From positions 46,610 to 110,609 of the forward strand of contig CAVVUS010000040.1 of assembly GCA_963751345.1 (NCBI GenBank): a DNA stretch of 64,000 nucleotides. Reading direction: 5' to 3'. Shown in pieces: positions 50,673-58,414 of the stretch (positions are counted from its first letter, which is position 1; the number at the start of each line of letters is the position of its first letter). The translations under genes and the position numbers were made by a program. The notes beneath the pieces were generated by a model. It was not told where the DNA came from and ran no database searches. It saw only the letters and a program-made list of their open reading frames with translations. Source of the stretch: an uncultured Chloroflexia bacterium. Its GTDB lineage: Bacteria; Chloroflexota; Anaerolineae; B4-G1; SLSP01.

Positions 50673-50684
50673 ACTTTCACGATA

Positions 50685-53600
50685 CTAGCCGATGTGGAGT
50701 TTGAGCGTCTTCACCTCGAACGGACGGAGCGAGACGGTGATCTCGTGCCCGGCGCCGGTCTTGACAACCGGCACGTCGGCGATCACGGTGTCCTCCAACA
50801 TATTCGTCAGCGCGGCACCGCTCACCGGCAGCGTCGTCGAGAGCGTGGCCTGCACCGCCATCCGCTTGGACTCGTAGAGCCGCACGACGACGTCGCCGGA
50901 GCCGTCCTCGGCGGGCTTGACCGTCTCGATGACGACGTTCGGCGCGTCCACGTTGAAGAGCGAGGCCGTGCCGGCATCGCCCGGGGCCGTCAGCAGCGGC
51001 GCGTTGAGGTCGTAGCCCTCGCGGACGACGTCGCTCTCGGCGAAGGGCCCGGTCCAGGCGTAGAAGGCGTAGGTGAACTCCTGGATGCCCTGGTCGGCGT
51101 GGTAGTCGGGCGCGAGCGCCGACTTGAGCAGCGTCAGGTTGATGGTGTTGCCGAGGACGTTGACGCCGTACTTGCAGTCGTTGAGCACCGCGCAGCCGCG
51201 GTTCTCCTCGACCAACGCCGTCCACTTGTGGTTGGGCACCTCGAAGCGGTCGGCGTCGAAGGGGCGGCTGCGGTGGTTCGGGCGCCGGATGTGGCCGAAC
51301 TGGATCTCGTGCAGCGCCTCGTCGCTGTGAATCCGGACGGGGAAGGCGACCTTGAGCAGCTTGTGCCGCTCGTGCCAGTCGATCGTCGTCTCGAAGTCGA
51401 GCCGCCGGCTGCCGCGCCGCAGGCTGATCTCCTGCGTCATCGTCGAGTCGTGCAGGGTGCGCGTGACCTTGAGCGTCGCGACCAGCGGCCCGGCGGCGAC
51501 CACCTCGATCTCGGCCGGCTGGTCGAGCAGCGACCGGGCGTCTGCTCGTACATGCTGTCGATGTCCCACGCGTCGAAGCGCGAGGGGACGTCCTTGTACA
51601 TCTGGAAGCTGTTGCACGCGCCCGTCGCCAGCTCGCCCAGCGGCCGGTCTTGTCGACGAGGCTCACGATCTCGCCGCGGTCGTTGAACTTGACCCGCAGC
51701 AGGTCGTTCTCCAGCAGGTCGGGCGCGGCCTTGAGCTCGGTTCGGCGGGCGTGGCGGCGCCGGCCGGGTGGAGCGTCGTCCACCCGCACGAGGGCACCGT
51801 CACCTCGGCCATCACGTCGTCGCCGACGGCCTGCACCGGCACCGGGGCGCCGGTAGCATCCGGCGCGCCCGCGTAGCCCTCGGGCAGCGGCACGAGCCCG
51901 TGCGCTCCCAGGAGAGACGTTGAAGACGGTCATCCCGTCGTCGCCCTTCGCCAGCGTCATCGCCGCGTCCGCCGTCACGCAGTCCGCCGCCTCGATCACC
52001 TGGTCGTAGAGCGCCTCGGCCTCCTCGTAGACACGCGCGATCGACGAGCCGGGGAGGATGTCGTGGAACTGGTTGAGCAGCACGCCCTTCCAGGCCTCGT
52101 CCAGCGTCGCGGACGAGAAGTCGAAGCCGCCCAGCAGGCGGGCCGCCACACCCCACAGCTCGGCTCGCCGGAGCGCGAACTCGCTCTTGCGGTTGCCGCG
52201 CTTGGTCTTGGCCTGCGAGGTGTACACGCCGCGGTGGCACTGGAAGTAGAGCTCGCCGACGTAGCGGTCCTCGGGCCAGCCCTTGGCTTCCTGGTCCTCG
52301 AAGAACTCCATCGGCGTCGCGAGACGCACCTTCGGCACGCCCTCGAGGTTCTGCAGCCGCCGCGCGAACTCGAGGTGGTCGCGGGTCGGCCCGCCGCCGC
52401 CGTCGCCGTAGCCGAAGGGATAGAGCCGGGTGGAGAAGCCGTCCTTCTGGACGCGCTCGTTCCAGCGCTCGATCACGCTCTCGGCGTCGATGCGGGCGTT
52501 GTAGTCGTTGTGCAGGTGGACGTAGACCTCGGAGCCGTCGATGCCCTCCCAGATGAAGGTGTTGTAGGGGAAGGGATCGCCGCCGTGGTAGGCCCAGAAG
52601 ATCTTCTGCGTGGAGAAGTACTTGACGCCGCAGCCGCGCATGATCTGCGGCAGCGCGCCGGAGTAGCCGAAGACGTCGGGCAGCCACAGCAGCTCGCAGT
52701 CGACGCCGAACTCCTGCTCGAAGAAGCGCTTGCCGTGGATGAACTGGCGGATCAGGCTCTCGCCGCCGGTGATGTTGGTGTCGGGCTCGACCCACGTCGC
52801 CCCCTCAGGGACGAACTGGCCCGCCGCCGCGGCCTCCTTGACCCGCGCGTAGATGTCGGGGTAGCGCTGCTGCAGCATCCGGTAGAGGTGCGGCTGGCTC
52901 TGCAGGAACTTGAACTCGGGGTACTCGGCCATCAGCGCCAACTGGGTGGAGAGGGTCCGCCCGATCTTGCGCTCGGTCTCCTGCAGCGGCCAGAGCCACG
53001 CCACGTCGAGGTGGGCGTGGCCGAAGGCGAACATCTCGGGCGCGGTCGAGCCGTTGACGCAGGCCATCAGCGGCGCCAGCCGCTCGCGGCACGCGCGCAC
53101 GGTCTCCAGCATCTCGTCGTTGGGCAGCTCGAAGTCGACGATCAACGTGAAATCGCGCAGCCCCGCGTCGATCTCCTGGAGCCGCAGGCTGTTCTCGTCG
53201 AGGTGCTCGCGCGTCTGGAAGAGCGTCTCGACGTCGAGCCAGAGCTGGTAGACATCCTCCTGCCAGATGCCGAACGTGGTCTCGCCGACCACCTCCTGGG
53301 TGGCGTCGGGACCGCGCATCGCACGCTGTCCGGGACGGAAACCCCACGGCGGGCCCACGACGCGCGACTGGGCGATGGCGTCGGACTCGGGAAGCGGCAT
53401 CTCGCGGTCGGGCGGCGTCGGCCCGCCGTGGACGAGGCGCGGCCCGTGGCCCGCGTAGCTCTCGATCAACACCTCGTAGCGGGTGCCGGGCGTGCCCGAT
53501 CGGGTCAGCGTGATCTCGGCGTGGCGCCGGTCGCGCGCGCCTGCGGCCTCGCCGTTCACCCAGACGATGCCCTCACCGCCGACCTCGACAACCAACACAA

Positions 53601-53848
53601 TACGGGCGTCCTCGGCCTCGTCGGGAAGCGTGAACTCGCCCTTGAACCACCCGTACTCCCACATCTTGCCCCAGGCCGTGCCCGCGGGCATAGGTGTGAA
53701 CGTCCTCGCCCAGCGCCTCGTCGGGCGTCAACTGCGCTTTGGTGGCGAACCCCGCCATCGCCACCGTGCCCAGCGGACGGTAGAGGTGGCGCGGCAATTC
53801 CTCGCGCCATGGTGCGAGTCTGTGCTGCCATTCCAGGTTCAGAACCAT
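50685..53848 (-). CDS. Alpha-mannosidase, GH38; several frameshifts
   Basis: GHAHLDVAWLWP, LWLPDVFGYS, FGYGDGGGGPT, GELYFQCHRG.YTSQ, LLNQFHDILPGSSI, LNDCKYG, VVRLYES. Confidence 0.92.
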
Positions 53849-53871: not shown

Positions 53872-53946
53872 AACGTTTAAACGTTAGCACGTTTTCACGT
53901 TCACGCCCCAACGTTCTGACGTGCAAACGTTCGAACGTGCTAACGC
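53872..53946. repeat. Degenerate octamer tandem repeat with ACGT core
   Basis: AACGTTTA, AACGTTAG, CACGTTTT, CACGTT, then AACGTTCT, GACGTGCA, AACGTTCG, AACGTGCT filling the intergenic space. Confidence 0.7.
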
Positions 53947-55007
53947 GTAATGATCGTCTTCAGCGAGTCCTGCGTGTCCAGCGCCTCGGCCTCCTGTGCG
54001 AAAACGCCGGCGATGTCACCCAGCGGGTGGCGCACCGAGTTCTCCAGGATGATGTCGACGTTGAAGACGCCGCGCTGGACCGCGCGATAGGCCTCGCGCA
54101 TGTTCTCGACCGACTGCAACTTGGTGTAGTGCACGCCGTTGAGGTTGCGGATCTCGAGGCCGTCCTCGTGGAACCGGTGGAAGCAGAAGTCATCCACCGG
54201 CGCGTAGTTGTCGCCGTAGAGCGCGACGATGCCGTTGTGGCGCACCATCGCGACCGCCTGCTTGATGCCGATGCCGGTGCCGCCCACGGCCTCCACCGCG
54301 ACGTCGACGCCCTCGCCCTTGGTGATCTCGTCGACGGCGGCGATGGCGTCGTCCTCCGCGGCGTTGATCACGACGTCGGCGCCCAGCGCCTTCGCCACCT
54401 CCAGCTTCGACGGCACGACGTCGACCGCGATGACCAGCGACGCGCCGGACTTGATCGCGCCCTGCAGCATGATGTTGCCGGCAAAGCCCACGCCGTTGAC
54501 GGCGACGGTGTCGCCCAGCTTCACGCCCATATGGATCGCGGCCCACGCCGCGCAGCCGAGAGGCTCGTACAGGCACCCCACCTCGAACGGGACCCCGTCG
54601 GGAATAGGCTGAACGTGGCGGATGTCGGTGACCCAGTAATCGGTGAAGGTCGGGTAGATCAGGCTCCCCACCCGGTCGCCGATCGCGACGCTGCCGCCCC
54701 CGACGTACGTCTCCACGCCGGCGCCCTTGGCGACGATCATGCCGCCGCCCTCGTGGCCCAGCGGCCCCATCGGGTAAGCGTGCTTGGGCTTGCCGTCCGG
54801 GCGGCCCGCGCCAAGCTGAACGTCGGGGCCGCCCTTGGCCTCATCCTGCGGGCGAACGCTGATGCCGCGGTAGTAATAGCGCTCGGAGCCACAGATCGAG
54901 GCCTGGTGCGCCTCGATCAAAACGTCATTCGGGCCGAGCTCCGGCAGGGTCAGCCGATCGAGCGTGATCTTCCCAGGCTCCAGGTAAACAGCGCGTGTCT
55001 CTACCAT
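53940..55007 (-). CDS. Zinc-binding (MDR) sugar/polyol dehydrogenase
   Basis: ICGSE, LGHEG, EPLGCA, GVGFAG, LGADVVIN, GVDVAVEAVG; no four-Cys structural Zn lobe. Confidence 0.87.
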   Translation of the reverse strand: MVETRAVYLEPGKITLDRLTLPELGPNDVLIEAHQASICGSERYYYRGISVRPQDEAKGGPDVQLGAGRPDGKPKHAYPMGPLGHEGGGMIVAKGAGVETYVGGGSVAIGDRVGSLIYPTFTDYWVTDIRHVQPIPDGVPFEVGCLYEPLGCAAWAAIHMGVKLGDTVAVNGVGFAGNIMLQGAIKSGASLVIAVDVVPSKLEVAKALGADVVINAAEDDAIAAVDEITKGEGVDVAVEAVGGTGIGIKQAVAMVRHNGIVALYGDNYAPVDDFCFHRFHEDGLEIRNLNGVHYTKLQSVENMREAYRAVQRGVFNVDIILENSVRHPLGDIAGVFAQEAEALDTQDSLKTIITR

Positions 55008-55169
55008 GCGAGGGTCGCGCCCACTGCAGGTCGAACCGAGGGTCTCATTGTGTGGCGCCTCCTGTCGTGGCGGCGGGATGGCCCGCCGCACCTCAACTCT
55101 GTGCGGGGATGATTGTACCATGGCTCCCCCAATACCCCACCGGGCGAAGACCTTCCGGCACCTTTCGGA

Positions 55170-55233
55170 ACCTTCCGGGAAGCTACATTACGCCGCCAAA
55201 TGCAAGGGCTTCCGCTCCAGCTTCCCGGAAGGT
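55170..55233. repeat. 15-bp inverted repeat in the divergent promoter region
   Basis: ACCTTCCGGGAAGCT (55170-55184) and AGCTTCCCGGAAGGT (55219-55233); preceded by two more ACCTT(C/T)CGG direct repeats. Confidence 0.7.
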
Positions 55234-55261
55234 AGGTACAAACGTTAACCATTTGTTAAAC

Positions 55262-55289
55262 TTGACATCTCGGATATAGTGTATACTAT
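55262..55289 (+). promoter_or_regulatory. Sigma70 promoter driving the riboswitch-microprotein unit
   Basis: TTGACA (55262-55267), 16-nt spacer, TACTAT (55284-55289). Confidence 0.7.
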
Positions 55290-55347
55290 GAGTGTGGGTG
55301 GTTGGGAAGAAGAGACCACCAGTAACGTACCTGAACAAGCGAATGCG

Positions 55348-55480
55348 AGCGTCGCCGAATGCACCAGCAGCGGGGGAACCGATATAATGGGGCGAGCCGA
55401 TGAGATCCGAGGGGGGTCTCGTCGTAGGGTCATCTTCTTTGATCCGAGCCCGACAGCTAACCTCGTAGGCGTGAAAGAAG
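55348..55480 (+). ncRNA. Cyclic di-AMP riboswitch (ydaO/yuaA class)
   Basis: Conserved blocks in the expected order: CGCCGAAT, GGGGGAACC, TGGGGCGA, GTAGGG, CCGAGCCCGACAGCTAACCTCGTAGGCG. Pseudoknot pairing CTTCTTT (55434-55440) with AAAGAAG (55474-55480). Confidence 0.92.
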
Positions 55481-55510
55481 GACACCACAGTTGACCGGGT
55501 GTCCTTTTTT
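55478..55510 (+). terminator. Riboswitch expression-platform intrinsic terminator
   Basis: Stem GGACACC/GGTGTCC followed by TTTTTT. Confidence 0.85.
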
Positions 55511-55570
55511 GCTGGTTCGGATCCGCGCGTCAATTGAGCGGTCAAAGCCAAGTATAGTAGGAGGAAGATC

Positions 55571-55714
55571 ATGGAGACCGATATCCAATCAATGATGATG
55601 GCGCCGATCGTGGCTGACGAGAAACTTCGGAACAAGCGTCGGGAGCCGGTGCAGTTGGAGCCAAACCTAAACGTGGCCCACCTGCTCCACAACCTAATCC
55701 GCCTGTTCCAGTAG
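55571..55714 (+). CDS. 47-aa small protein of unknown function under c-di-AMP riboswitch control
   Basis: SD AGGAGG upstream; METDIQSMMMAPIVADEKLRNKRREPVQLEPNLNVAHLLHNLIRLFQ*. The only plausible ORF between the riboswitch and the downstream terminator. Confidence 0.8.
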   Translation: METDIQSMMMAPIVADEKLRNKRREPVQLEPNLNVAHLLHNLIRLFQ

Positions 55715-55760
55715 TTGAAGCGAGCCGGATTTCGGCCCGAACGATATAAGGTCACAAGCA

Positions 55761-55794
55761 CAAGCAGCCCCCCGAGACTTCGGGGGGCTGCTTG
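55761..55794. terminator. Strong hairpin between convergent genes (probable bidirectional terminator)
   Basis: CAAGCAGCCCCCCGA-GACT-TCGGGGGGCTGCTTG, a perfect 15-bp stem. Confidence 0.75.
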
Positions 55795-55810
55795 GCGTCT
55801 ATGGACCGTG

Positions 55811-55860
55811 AAGACTCTTTGGGCAAGCCCGAGTCTGCTCGGGCCGGAAACCCCAAAGGT
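55811..55860. repeat. REP-like family B copy
   Basis: AAGACTCTTTGGG...CGGGCCGGAAACCCCAAAGGT; close to the reverse complement of 50627-50676, including the internal spacer. Confidence 0.7.
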
Positions 55861-55861
55861 T

Positions 55862-56767
55862 TCAGCTCTTCTGCACCCTCGCGATCGCCGCGCGCACCGT
55901 GTCAGGTAATCCCTGCCCGTTCGAGGCAGCGACGTTCTCCTCCAACTGCGCCACCGTGCGCGCACCGGGTATGATCGCCGACATTGCCTTTGGCGTCAGG
56001 CTGAACTGAAGCGCCATCCGCGTCATCCCGCCCTCACGACCCTCTGCGATGGGGCGTAGTGCCTCGGCCCTGGTGATGTTCTCGACCATCTGATCGCCGT
56101 CGAGTTGTGCTCTGTTGTCCTCGCCCACAGGCGCGCCCGGTCTGAATTTACCCGTTAGCACACCACGGGCCAGCGGCATCCGGCAGAGCAGCCCGACGCC
56201 GGTCTCCTCGGCGACCGCAAAAAGATCCGTCTCCGGTGCCGTATAGAAAATGTTGTACGTGATCTGCAGCACGTCGACCAGGCTTGAGCGCATCAGCCAG
56301 ATCGCGTCGTCCTCGGTGCGAACCGCGACGGCCGCGAAGCGGATCTTGCCCTGTACCTTGAGCTTCTGCATTCCCTCCGCCCAGTCGTAGGTCTCCAGTG
56401 CCTCGCGCGTCGGGCTGTGGAGCTGGTAGATGTCGACCACGTCACGCTGGAGACGCCGCAAGCTGCCCTCCAGCGTCTCCACCATGCGCGCCGCCGAGAA
56501 ATCGTGCTCGCCCGTGCCCCGGACCCGGCACATCTTGGTCGCGACGAGGACGTCGTCGCGGTTTCCAAGCGCCTTGCCCAACATCTCCTCGCTGCGGCCC
56601 CAGCCGTAGGCCTCGGCCGAGTCAAAGACAGTGACGCCCAAGTCGACGGCGCGGCGCACCAGGTTCACCCAATGCTCGTCGGATGCATATGATTCGCCAA
56701 GGCGATTGCCGCCCAGGCCCACCTCGGATATCTCTACCCCGGTATTGCCCAATTCACGATAATGCAT
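55862..56767 (-). CDS. Aldo/keto reductase
   Basis: YRELGNTG, DSAEAYG.G.SEE, SLRRLQRDVVDIYQLH, PLARGVLTGKF. Confidence 0.92.
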   Translation of the reverse strand: MHYRELGNTGVEISEVGLGGNRLGESYASDEHWVNLVRRAVDLGVTVFDSAEAYGWGRSEEMLGKALGNRDDVLVATKMCRVRGTGEHDFSAARMVETLEGSLRRLQRDVVDIYQLHSPTREALETYDWAEGMQKLKVQGKIRFAAVAVRTEDDAIWLMRSSLVDVLQITYNIFYTAPETDLFAVAEETGVGLLCRMPLARGVLTGKFRPGAPVGEDNRAQLDGDQMVENITRAEALRPIAEGREGGMTRMALQFSLTPKAMSAIIPGARTVAQLEENVAASNGQGLPDTVRAAIARVQKS

Positions 56768-56884
56768 CTATCTTGATTCTCCTAAAGTATCTGTCCCCTC
56801 CCTCGCGAGTCCGATTCACTTAAGGGCCGACCCCGGGAGGGTGGCACCAGAGCTGGCGCCGGAAGGATGCGAGTGCGCCTAGCG

Positions 56885-57474
56885 CTACAAGGACGCCCGC
56901 GTCTCGCGAACGGCGGCGTCGAAGGCCGCCTCGAGCGCGGCGTTGGTGCCCCGGATCCCGTCCACGACCTGCTCCGCCCAGTCGACGTACTGCGGCGATC
57001 CGCGACGCGGGCCAGTGCGCAGGCGGGTCCGTGCTGAGTTCCCGCACGTTGTGAGATCTTGTCCGCCAGCTTGACCAGCTTGGCGGCGCGCGAGGCGTCG
57101 GCAGCGTGGACGATCTGCAGTTGCTTGCGGACATCTTTGGGAAGCGACTTGTCGTCCGTGACCTCGCGCACGATCGAGGCGACCTCGGGGCCGAAGCGCG
57201 CCTCGATCTCCTCCGGTGCCGTGCCCGTGTCCTCAACGGTATCGTGGAGCAGCGCGGCCACGAGCGTGGCCGTGTCGCGTACCCCACCCACGTCCCACAG
57301 GAGCTGCATCACGCCGATGACGTGGTTGACGTACGGGCGGTGATCCTCACCCTTGCGGCGTTGGTCCCGGTGGCGCTCGGCGGCGAAGGCCACCGCCGCG
57401 ATCAGGTCGCCGACCTGGGAAGCCGTGAAGAGGTCGCGCCGCGCGGCCTCTCCGGTGGATGTCGGTCCGTCCAT
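56885..57474 (-). CDS. HD-domain protein, Mesh1/small alarmone hydrolase-like; frameshifted
   Basis: [12 protein letters not shown]...[35 protein letters not shown]. Confidence 0.85.
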
Positions 57475-58414
57475 CAGGACGCGTGTTCCTGCTTTTTGAG
57501 CGCCGCCTCGACCCGTGCCCAGATCCTCTCGTCGCCCTGGTAGAGCCGAAGCGCCGCCAAAGCCTCGTCGGCCGGGCGTCCGCCCTCCTCCACGAGCGAG
57601 ATCAGAAAGTCGAAGGCGCGCTCGTGGCGCAGGAGCGCGATCGCGACCAGGAACGCGCGCCGCAGCTCCCCATCGATGGCATCCTCCCACGCCGCCTCCA
57701 GAAAGGGGAAGGCCTGCACGAGGTGGGAGTCGCCCAGCGCGACCGCCGCCGCCTCCTGCTCCGCACGGTCCTCGCTACGCAGGAAGCCTGCCACGAAGGT
57801 CAGCGAGGCCTCTGCATCGAGCTGTATCAGCGCGGTGAAGCAATCGCTGATCACGTCTGGGCTGCTCGTCGCCGGTGAGTACCTTGAACCGCAGCAGCGG
57901 CACCCCAGCCTCCAGCCCTGCAGTACCCGATCGCACGGGCAGCCGAGATACGGGCATCGGCTTCGGAGTCGGCCAGCAACTGCGCGAGCTGCAGCATCAC
58001 ATTGGGATAGTTGATGCGGACCAGGCCAAGAGCCGAGAGACCCCTGAGCTTGGCCGCCGTATCCTCACGCCCACCCCACACCGGCTCCATCTGCACATGC
58101 CCAATCCCCTGGAGGTAGACGTCCGGCTGGTACGCCTCCATCCGATAGAGTGCGTCGACGATCGCCGTCTTGGCCGCGCAGCCCGGGTCGGTCTTCGTCG
58201 GGTTGTTCATGAAGCGGTCGAAGGCCTGCACCAGATCGGGCACCAGTTCGAATAACTGGAACTCGCCCGCGATCTCCGCGGCCCGCCCTGCGACGTGGTT
58301 CACCTTCGACCCAAGCGCACGGCGAAGCGCGGCCAGCGTCTGCTCGGACATCGGATCGGACCGCAGCGCACTGAGGTCCGCGAGCCGGTCGTCCAGGCTT
58401 CGCGATCTGCCCAT
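57474..58414 (-). CDS. HEAT-repeat protein; frameshifted
   Basis: [56 protein letters not shown]; TGATG coupling to the HD gene. Confidence 0.75.

Follow-up and report, generated by a model that had tools for sequence, protein, structure and literature searches.

A ydaO-class c-di-AMP riboswitch with a conserved, stand-alone 47-aa microprotein gene as its cargo in a Chloroflexota genome

The DNA analyzed here, called the window below, is a 64-kb stretch of a Chloroflexota genome, and it contains a compact unit on the plus strand, bordered at 53940-55121 by the gene of a zinc-type alcohol dehydrogenase and at 55862-56767 by that of an aldo/keto reductase, both on the minus strand. The unit begins with a sigma-70-type promoter-like site at 55262-55289, composed of a TTGACA box (55262-55267), a 16-nt spacer and a TACTAT box (55284-55289), which agrees with the consensus at 10 of 12 positions; two promoter-like sites were found in 55000-56000, as against 0.3 expected from shuffled sequence. 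A leader hairpin with a purine-rich loop can be read from the sequence at 55297-55320, and it is followed by a c-di-AMP riboswitch aptamer of the ydaO/yuaA class (RF00379; 55343-55486) and by an intrinsic terminator at 55480-55510, which would serve as the expression platform. A Shine-Dalgarno sequence, AGGAGG (55559-55564), stands 6 nt upstream of the ATG at 55571, which opens the gene of a 47-aa microprotein (55571-55714), designated type A. Between this gene and the convergent aldo/keto reductase gene there is a 3' hairpin with a 4-nt loop at 55762-55793, to which no strand can be assigned; no T-run flanks it on either strand, and it may form the end of one or both convergent transcripts. 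An initial annotation, made from the letters of the sequence, had described a lone plus-strand unit composed of promoter, aptamer, pseudoknot, terminator, Shine-Dalgarno sequence and ORF and opposite in strand to its neighbors, and we found every one of these elements where it had been placed, give or take a few bases; the 3' hairpin, given there as 15 bp, is present and measures 14 bp.

At orthologous type-A loci, the promoter-like site ends 38-89 nt upstream of the aptamer, the distance being 47-54 nt in 13 of 19 cases. Other microprotein-linked leaders, when viewed individually, show hairpins comparable to that of the window. An RNAalifold analysis of the leaders gave no consensus structure, probably owing to an alignment out of register, and we therefore claim neither conservation of the hairpin fold nor covariation.

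The RF00379 covariance model matches 55343-55486 with 80.5 bits (E 4e-17) over model positions 1-134 of 134, far above the curated gathering score of 38 bits, and this was the sole Rfam match in the window. The whole-genome search, for which Bacillus subtilis served as a control genome with its matches recovered, found the same aptamer again and gave four RF00379 copies in this genome. Judging from this match, the aptamer is a genuine full-length c-di-AMP riboswitch of the ydaO class. The class-specific pseudoknot could form between 55433-55440 and 55474-55481 with eight contiguous pairs, which represents pairing potential only; among 72 related aptamers, the median number of such pairs was 8, compared with 5.9 when the tails were shuffled. 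The terminator directly abuts the aptamer and consists of a 7-bp G+C-rich stem (arms 55480-55486 and 55498-55504), an 11-nt loop and a run of six T (55505-55510); a simple terminator scan missed it because the loop exceeded the 8-nt limit of the scan. The same design, GGACACC...GGTGTCC with a T-run, follows 66 of 74 related aptamers regardless of the cargo, including those that precede the ABC (C12) and MFS (C35) transporter genes of this genome.

We examined whether the short ORF has been stably maintained in related genomes. RF00379 matches numbered 74, distributed in 28 of 61 genomes, and at 25 of these loci, belonging to 20 genomes, a homologous ORF of 45-51 aa was found immediately downstream of the aptamer on the same strand. 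The 74 downstream stretches contain, over their two strands, 2004 stop-to-stop ORFs; among these, an HMM constructed with 15 ORFs as seeds detected 28 ORFs in the 25 loci at E < 0.01 (the next score was E 0.12), all on the riboswitch strand and 13 of them not among the seeds. An ATG was found in 27 of the 28 ORFs, and a Shine-Dalgarno-like purine run in 26 of 27, the remaining one being N-masked at that place. The ratio dN/dS, estimated by the NG86 method, had a median of 0.41 for type A, with all 79 usable pairs (of 210) below 1, and a median of 0.36 for type B, a second group of microproteins described below, with all 15 pairs below 1; both types showed an excess of differences at the third codon position. 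Values around 0.4 correspond to moderate constraint only. On the basis of these comparisons, we regard the 47-aa ORF as a real gene under purifying selection.

The gene had been initially annotated as an unannotated one, and this holds only in part: the element itself is real, and close relatives of the microprotein are already present in public protein sets as predicted 'hypothetical proteins'. A library of 1.84 billion representatives contained 31 clusters matching the microprotein, 28 of which were 45-51 aa long; as for the outliers, entries of 73 aa and 88 aa start 5' of the conserved ATG, and one of 752 aa is a short repetitive match. The core of the initial annotation, a ydaO/c-di-AMP riboswitch with a stand-alone microprotein as its only cargo, survived all the refutation tests it had named, as the aptamer scored strongly, the ORF with its ATG and Shine-Dalgarno sequence was conserved with dN/dS below 1 in every usable pair, and the relatives carried an equally short gene rather than a long one.

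Three RNA libraries yielded assembled contigs that span the terminator (55339-55642, 55421-55587 and 55315-55552), and the first of these runs through the terminator into the ORF with zero mismatches; these are metatranscriptome assemblies, in which DNA carry-over is possible and strand and transcript ends are unreadable, and stretches of the window without such cover should not be taken as evidence of silence. RNA-library contigs start at 55309, 55315 and 55339, all downstream of the promoter-like site, which is a weak hint only.

The genome encodes a second microprotein, type B (C30:395674-395826), in the same arrangement, and a six-frame search of the whole genome recovered just these two riboswitch-linked copies. 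The type-B unit is closed by a strong intrinsic terminator. A third family, type C, occurs in another genus. Paralogy of types A and B was considered and is not supported: BLASTP gave no alignment, HMMs built from A alone or B alone missed the other type, and hhalign assigned a probability of 1.6%; a joint alignment of the two was used purely as a search tool. The search of the 61 genomes yielded 36 matches, comprising 28 behind an aptamer, one at a contig end and seven lacking an aptamer. These seven A-like copies are weak and divergent and show no aptamer over at least 690 nt of upstream sequence, and a pair of type-C copies has none within 1500 nt; the microprotein families are therefore not obligately controlled by riboswitches. 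Two of the aptamer-less A-like copies precede a conserved protein of 358-371 aa with no Pfam match, which offers no clue to function. Type A is a lineage-restricted family found almost always directly 3' of an RF00379 aptamer, and a 48-aa A-like ORF was found even in a genome from another family of the class (G110), directly behind a 91-bit aptamer in an unrelated neighborhood. Copy number varies among loci, and tandem arrays occur.

A tree of the aptamers placed the 25 microprotein-linked ones outside a clade of 48 aptamers linked to transporters or other genes (support 86/93), and the type-B aptamers formed one group (80/99). Microproteins are the commonest RF00379 cargo in the genus (25/74), and the other cargo in related genomes, of ordinary size, includes ABC_membrane, MFS_1, TauE, DUF362 and NTP_transferase. 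Elsewhere in the class, RF00379 loci share the aptamer and terminator design and, unlike the window, carry cargo of ordinary size: tandem CdAMP_rec, Inos-1-P_synth, Octopine_DH-like, LytR_cpsA_psr, PBP_like_2 and B12-binding proteins. Among these, Inos-1-P_synth, Octopine_DH-like, LytR_cpsA_psr and CdAMP_rec are osmolyte, envelope and c-di-AMP reception genes. At type-A loci the syntenic neighbors, namely an ORF of about 1000 aa, ADH_zinc, Aldo_ket_red and HD_4, all lie on the opposite strand, and a search for a partner among conserved neighbors returned this opposite-strand synteny only, which we read as a sign of shared ancestry rather than of linkage. The next genes in the window and at its syntenic loci are convergent and the peptide itself is conserved, which is not the layout of an attenuator leader peptide. 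At one exceptional locus (G035), a same-strand GFO_IDH_MocA gene lies 107 nt downstream of the microprotein.

AlphaFold2 predicted helices at residues 5-23 and 33-46 for type A (mean pLDDT 75), and the helices predicted for type B lie at 2-26 and 38-50 (pLDDT 67); in both types a linker of 9-11 residues joins the two helices, and transmembrane segments and cysteines are absent. The top 19-residue hydropathy was 0.39 for the window protein and at most 1.07 among type-A members, so that no transmembrane segment is expected in type A. The hydrophobic moment is greatest in the C-terminal helix, which is strongly amphipathic and occupies the extreme C-terminus; in some A-like and type-C members, this helix is plainly hydrophobic. 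Types A, B and C are all predicted to be, or seem to be, two-helix proteins. Two predicted helices with an amphipathic C-terminal one make a sequence compatible with a membrane-associated regulator. Pfam gave no significant match for any of the 27 members (best E 0.054, with a single member per match), NCBIfam profiles gave none for the microproteins, PDB profile searches returned chance-level matches only (a de novo protein and IL-13, E 0.007 or worse), Foldseek against PDB returned 0 matches, and the best ESM Atlas score, 0.82, was under the threshold for a lead.

The initial annotation had also raised the question whether the genome carries a diadenylate cyclase, and it does: a 272-aa ORF (G000:C24) contains a DAC domain (PF02457, 137.6 bits) and a hydrophobic N-terminus, and from these features it is assigned as a CdaA-type cyclase. 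The next gene, of 412 aa, is read as CdaR-like from its position and sequence.

The leaders of B. subtilis ydaO (kimA) and yuaA (ktrAB) are the founding c-di-AMP riboswitches, which control large K+ transporters. As in the window, they consist of a full-model RF00379 aptamer followed by an intrinsic terminator, in a host with a CdaA-type cyclase; the window differs in that its only cargo is a soluble-looking protein of 47 aa and its downstream genes lie on the opposite strand. More generally, c-di-AMP riboswitches are known to control genes for transporters, osmolyte enzymes and cell-wall hydrolases. In kdpFABC of Bacillus thuringiensis, the first ORF downstream of a c-di-AMP riboswitch also encodes a very small protein, KdpF, a hydrophobic peptide of the membrane that is encoded by the leading gene of a transporter operon. 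The microproteins described here, in contrast, have no transmembrane segment and stand alone, with no adjacent kdp genes; the neighbors in the window are an opposite-strand dehydrogenase and reductase. A different group of small proteins, MntS, MgtS, SgrT, AcrZ and Sda, have 30-60 residues, are produced on a specific ionic or stress signal and bind a larger protein, and Sda forms a helical hairpin of roughly 46 residues. The likeness of the window microprotein to them is in size and regulatory logic only, with no sequence or fold match in the Pfam, NCBIfam, PDB or Foldseek searches. Full-text literature searches, with PMC3766115 and PMC7266159 among the sources, yielded no description of a microprotein under the control of a c-di-AMP riboswitch, and gene-association supplements may list such ORFs as hypothetical proteins.

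We consider it probable (roughly 60%) that the locus is a self-contained, riboswitch-gated unit whose microprotein is a small regulator or adaptor that tunes transport or c-di-AMP homeostasis. By analogy with characterised members of the class, a high level of c-di-AMP would fold the aptamer and halt transcription at 55505-55510, and a drop in c-di-AMP, caused by K+ shortage or osmotic upshift, would allow read-through and production of the microprotein. The ABC and MFS transporters having the same aptamer-terminator design would be co-produced at low c-di-AMP, and the amphipathic C-terminal helix would bring the microprotein to the membrane or to a partner, and from there it would tune transport or c-di-AMP homeostasis. 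Our best guess is a small regulator made at low c-di-AMP, with the membrane as a possible site of action and osmotic or K+ homeostasis as a possible role.

The strongest competitor, which we hold to be unlikely on balance, keeps the riboswitch gating and makes the product a soluble stress protein whose basic middle segment binds nucleic acid, a cytosolic enzyme or the ribosome, or else a protein that feeds back on c-di-AMP synthesis or degradation. The central segment is indeed basic, most members carry a positive net charge (medians of +1 in type A and +3 in type B), the C-terminus of type B is less hydrophobic, and no same-strand transporter gene lies beside any member; the lack of a match to any nucleic-acid-binding or other family speaks against it. 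The direction of the switch can also be questioned. The 3' strand of the pseudoknot (55474-55481) and the terminator stem (55480-55486) share two bases, and inspection of the sequence found no antiterminator or alternative pairing, so that the OFF direction rests on analogy and an ON logic, in which ligand binding blocks termination and the microprotein is made at high c-di-AMP, is compatible with the sequence. We judge this reversed direction improbable: to our knowledge, all characterised members of the RF00379 class are OFF with ligand (Bacillus kimA and ktrAB, Streptomyces rpfA and the B. thuringiensis kdp operon), and transporter genes of a kind usually induced at low c-di-AMP lie behind this same terminator design.

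That the product is a membrane-active, toxin-like peptide slowing growth upon a collapse of c-di-AMP appears very unlikely; the small size, the amphipathic or hydrophobic C-terminal helix, the variable copy number and the tandem arrays would suit such a peptide, but no member has a hydrophobic stretch of transmembrane length, no antitoxin RNA or gene is evident, and the gene is stably syntenic and not mobile. Equally, there is very little to recommend, and we rank slightly lower, a transcript that functions as RNA with an incidental ORF, either as a terminated small RNA or as an antisense to the aldo/keto reductase and HD-domain genes. Lacking a T-run, the 3' hairpin might permit read-through into the convergent gene, and most type-A loci preserve the synteny of the convergent AKR and HD_4 genes; against this, ATG, Shine-Dalgarno sequence, length and frame are kept across the 25 loci with dN/dS below 1, the terminator of the type-B unit would close its transcript, and the G110 unit has unrelated neighbors. 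It is hardly credible that the ORF is a remnant of a longer riboswitch-controlled gene, or that the 260-aa minus-strand ORF covering the region (55183-55965) is the real gene, since an ORF of the same 45-51 aa recurs in relatives and in 28 of the 31 clusters from the library, which excludes a deletion remnant here, and the antisense ORF matches no known family and is shortened to 93-188 aa among relatives.

Returning to the riboswitch-gated regulator, the commonest riboswitch output of this genus is a stand-alone microprotein belonging to no known family, and a single genome has two unrelated ones, indicating that c-di-AMP signalling has an unexplored layer working through small proteins. It is conceivable, as a tentative generalization that we would not yet favor, that at least three sequence-unrelated two-helix families of about 50 residues, placed behind c-di-AMP riboswitches in one class of Chloroflexota, constitute a new class of second-messenger effectors, which, when the messenger falls, would attach by their amphipathic C-terminal helix to the membrane or a partner and retune K+/osmolyte transport or, as feedback, the cyclase. 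The case also illustrates that riboswitch-anchored searches recover real small genes hidden by ORF-length cut-offs. This is a rare orphan bacterial microprotein whose inducing signal is known from sequence alone, and its function is thereby testable, by looking for its binders or for changes at low c-di-AMP.

Reading of positions 54900-56100, together with an Rfam scan of the 64 kb, bore out the anatomy proposed in the initial annotation, in which a c-di-AMP riboswitch controls a lone microprotein gene. The sole Rfam match in the window is an aptamer of the c-di-AMP (ydaO/yuaA) class, RF00379, at 55343-55486 (+), scoring 80.5 bits (E 4e-17; gathering score 38) with all 134 model positions matched. 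On the same strand it is preceded by a promoter-like site (TTGACA at 55262-55267, a 16-nt spacer and TACTAT at 55284-55289; 2 sites in 55000-56000 vs 0.3 in shuffles). The pseudoknot claimed earlier can form by 8 contiguous pairs between the loop 55433-55440 and the 3' tail 55474-55481 (+), the median over 72 related aptamers being 8 vs 5.9 with shuffled tails. Directly 3' of the aptamer is a terminator (+) whose G+C-rich stem pairs 55480-55486 with 55498-55504 ahead of six T (55505-55510), and which a simple terminator scan missed because its 11-nt loop exceeds the limit of that scan. The SD sequence AGGAGG (55559-55564, +) stands 6 nt 5' of the ATG at 55571, which opens the 47-aa type-A microprotein ORF (55571-55714, +), and a 14-bp hairpin lacking a T-run on both strands follows at 55762-55793. 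The unit is flanked by genes for a zinc-type alcohol dehydrogenase (53940-55121, -) and an aldo/keto reductase (55862-56767, -).

RF00379 occurs four times in the source genome (5.4 Mb in 49 contigs, 93% complete). Two of the copies stand 5' of transporter genes, one of the ABC type (ABC_membrane) and one of the MFS type. Another begins a second riboswitch-microprotein unit (contig C30, 395383-395829; 1501-1947 of the fetched stretch L001): 3' of its aptamer (395383-395529, 86 bits) come a terminator, an SD and a 51-aa type-B ORF, and a strong intrinsic terminator closes the unit. When this genome and 60 relatives were searched, 74 matches to RF00379 were obtained in 28 of the 61 genomes, covering 22/22 genomes of the genus but only 6/27 genera sampled. 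For each match we retrieved 300 nt of upstream and 1500 nt of downstream sequence, built a profile from 15 short ORFs picked by coordinates, and ran it against the 2004 stop-to-stop ORFs (30 aa or longer, both strands) in the 74 downstream stretches. The profile assigned 28 ORFs at 25 loci (E < 0.01; next best E 0.12), every one on the riboswitch strand and 13 of them non-seeds. An ATG start was present in 27/28, and 26 of these 27 had a strong purine-rich SD, the last being N-masked there. Tandem type-A genes with their own SDs occur behind a single aptamer, three in G014 (L032, G014:C29, 568-1183) and two in G005 (L037, G005:C230).

A six-frame search of the source genome found as microprotein matches only the two riboswitch-linked copies (next E 0.66 and 0.72), and an aptamer precedes 28 of the 36 matches in the 61 genomes. 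Of the other eight, a type-B-like copy is 139 nt from a contig end, and seven weak, divergent A-like copies (L085-L091, at G021:C5, G002:C5, G002:C16, G015:C17/C151/C165 and G001:C340), in tandem pairs at two loci, had no RF00379 match at E <=1 in at least 690 nt fetched upstream. Class-wide sampling (401 genomes, 216 genera) added one match, in G110 of another family, where a 91-bit aptamer precedes a 48-aa ORF by 94 nt and a terminator, SD and 3' hairpin are present. In a class-wide RF00379 survey (151 genomes, 44 with matches, 58 loci fetched), microprotein cargo was found only in the genus of G110; G152 of that genus carries a single A-like ORF (A-HMM E 8e-4) together with two members of a further family, type C. 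Type-C copies in a neighbouring genus (L172, L173, g30) had no aptamer within 1500 nt. Because A-like and type-C copies without an aptamer exist, the microproteins are usually, not obligately, riboswitch-gated. At L107 and L110, a conserved 358-371-aa protein without Pfam match is encoded 3' of the A-like copy in the same orientation.

The 74 aptamers carry type A (19), type B (6), MFS (18), ABC (17) or other cargo (9), and for the remaining 5 the cargo is truncated at a contig end or ambiguous. In their maximum-likelihood tree, the 25 microprotein-linked aptamers fall outside a clade of 48 transporter-linked and other aptamers (support 86/93), and the six type-B aptamers form one group (80/99). 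Since the tree separates the microprotein-linked aptamers, aptamer and cargo seem to have been passed down as a pair.

When 1.84 billion representative proteins were searched with a profile, 31 clusters matched at E <=0.001; 28 are 45-51 aa long, two longer ones start 5' of the conserved ATG, and a 752-aa protein was matched over a short repetitive stretch. Public records of close relatives read 'hypothetical protein', and named records with type A are MAGs of uncultured Chloroflexota carrying the label Anaerolineae, Anaerolineales or Chloroflexia. The stretch is found mainly in sequencing runs of salt-marsh metagenomes and metatranscriptomes. Contigs of three RNA libraries were placed on 54700-56400: one at 55339-55642 (304 nt, no mismatch), a second set at 55309-55419 and 55421-55587, and a third at 55315-55552. 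All begin 3' of the predicted promoter, 3/3 sets span the terminator and two extend into the ORF, though strand, ends and level are not readable from such contigs and DNA carry-over is possible.

Types A (45-50 aa) and B (51 aa) are similar in size and layout. BLASTP gave no alignment between them, the A-HMM found no type B nor the B-HMM any type A, and hhalign of A vs B gave 1.6%; we therefore take them as unrelated or diverged past recognition. AlphaFold2 predicts a common architecture, with helices at 5-23 and 33-46 in type A (pLDDT 75) and 2-26 and 38-50 in type B (pLDDT 67). Type C, 54 and 52 aa in G152 (L148:307-468 and L156:762-917; mutual BLASTP 3e-14), has a hydrophobic C-terminal helix, and both copies lie behind c-di-AMP aptamers. 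In all there are two families and probably a third. None of the microproteins matched Pfam, NCBIfam, PDB or Foldseek. Across 43 type-A sequences E17 (window numbering) is invariant and L29 nearly so. The type-A hydrophobic moment peaks in the C-terminal helix, whose end is one or two residues from the stop; this terminal amphipathic helix may be of the kind that targets membranes, as in MinD. Cysteine and a transmembrane-length hydrophobic stretch are absent in all members. The data would also fit a soluble protein with a role away from the membrane.

The genome encodes a CdaA-type cyclase, the diadenylate cyclase whose presence the initial annotation had left to be checked, followed by a 412-aa gene taken to be CdaR-like, and c-di-AMP is therefore made. 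The known characterised members of this riboswitch class are OFF switches. By analogy, high c-di-AMP would terminate transcription 5' of the microprotein gene, and the gene would be read when c-di-AMP is low. Two bases are shared between the pseudoknot strand and the terminator stem, and inspection of the unit for an antiterminator found none; an ON switch, though conceivable, is unlikely. The post-aptamer terminator motif is common to 66/74 copies whatever the cargo, and therefore microproteins and ABC and MFS transporters should respond together.

A toxin-like peptide is not supported, as hydropathy gives no sign of one. A function of the transcript as RNA only is contradicted by the coding signature of the ORF: dN/dS (Nei-Gojobori) has a median of 0.41 in type A and 0.36 in type B, and is <1 in 79/79 usable pairs (of 210) and 15/15, respectively, pairs that are not independent of each other, and third-codon-position differences are in excess. 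These sequence comparisons point to moderate selective constraint, and the conservation with dN/dS below 1 named earlier as a check holds at all usable pairs and 25 loci with a homologous ORF. A deletion remnant of a longer gene, also raised earlier, is refuted by the relatives. A 260-aa antisense ORF spanning the unit (55183-55965, -) was rejected, having no family match and a length not kept in relatives; high G+C content probably accounts for it.

We also compared the leader between promoter and aptamer (window 55290-55342 and the corresponding region of L001-L069). It is longer for microprotein-linked aptamers (38-89 nt from the -10 box end to the aptamer), usually with a hairpin whose purine-rich loop is similar to the pseudoknot tail, than for most transporter-linked ones among those inspected, most of which have a promoter-like site near the aptamer; no consensus fold was obtained across these leaders. 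Two genes downstream of the microprotein gene, and convergent to it, is an HD_4-domain protein (56782-57690, -), the domain type being that of small (p)ppGpp hydrolases; it is syntenic in 8/21 stretches compared, among them another genus in which it directly faces the microprotein gene. The 1004-aa ORF at 50677-53691 (-) is Arg/Ala-rich and of low complexity past about residue 600, and the riboswitch-linked MFS gene (G000:C35, downstream of 4826) occupies two frames (252 + 262 aa) vs about 480 aa in relatives; assembly frameshifts are possible at both.

Elsewhere in the class, RF00379 precedes myo-inositol-1-phosphate synthase, an octopine-dehydrogenase-like enzyme, LytR_cpsA_psr, a PBP_like_2 binding protein, B12-binding-domain proteins and, by eye, nucleotidyl transferases at L113-L116 (other-cargo loci L139, L150, L127, L125, L136 and L113-L116). 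In other families it lies 5' of proteins with two CdAMP_rec (PF06153) domains (L126:74-763, L133:311-970; by eye also L120, L149, L163), where an RNA sensor of c-di-AMP controls a protein receptor for the same messenger. Aptamer and terminator without a recognisable cargo ORF were seen at L117, L124, L132, L143 and L144 (also L142, L162), several with a conserved pyrimidine-rich element and then a G+C-rich hairpin 3' of the terminator, present twice in L124. The class-wide cargo suggests an osmolyte, envelope and c-di-AMP regulon.

The riboswitch is of a textbook class and the cargo is not: in the full-text literature, the original ydaO papers and all supplements excepted, we found no report of a c-di-AMP riboswitch with stand-alone microprotein cargo. 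The arrangement is well supported as an observation and is relevant to research on riboswitches, c-di-AMP and small proteins. On the most economical reading, the microproteins take part in a response to low c-di-AMP (K+ or osmotic) and work through binding to something larger.
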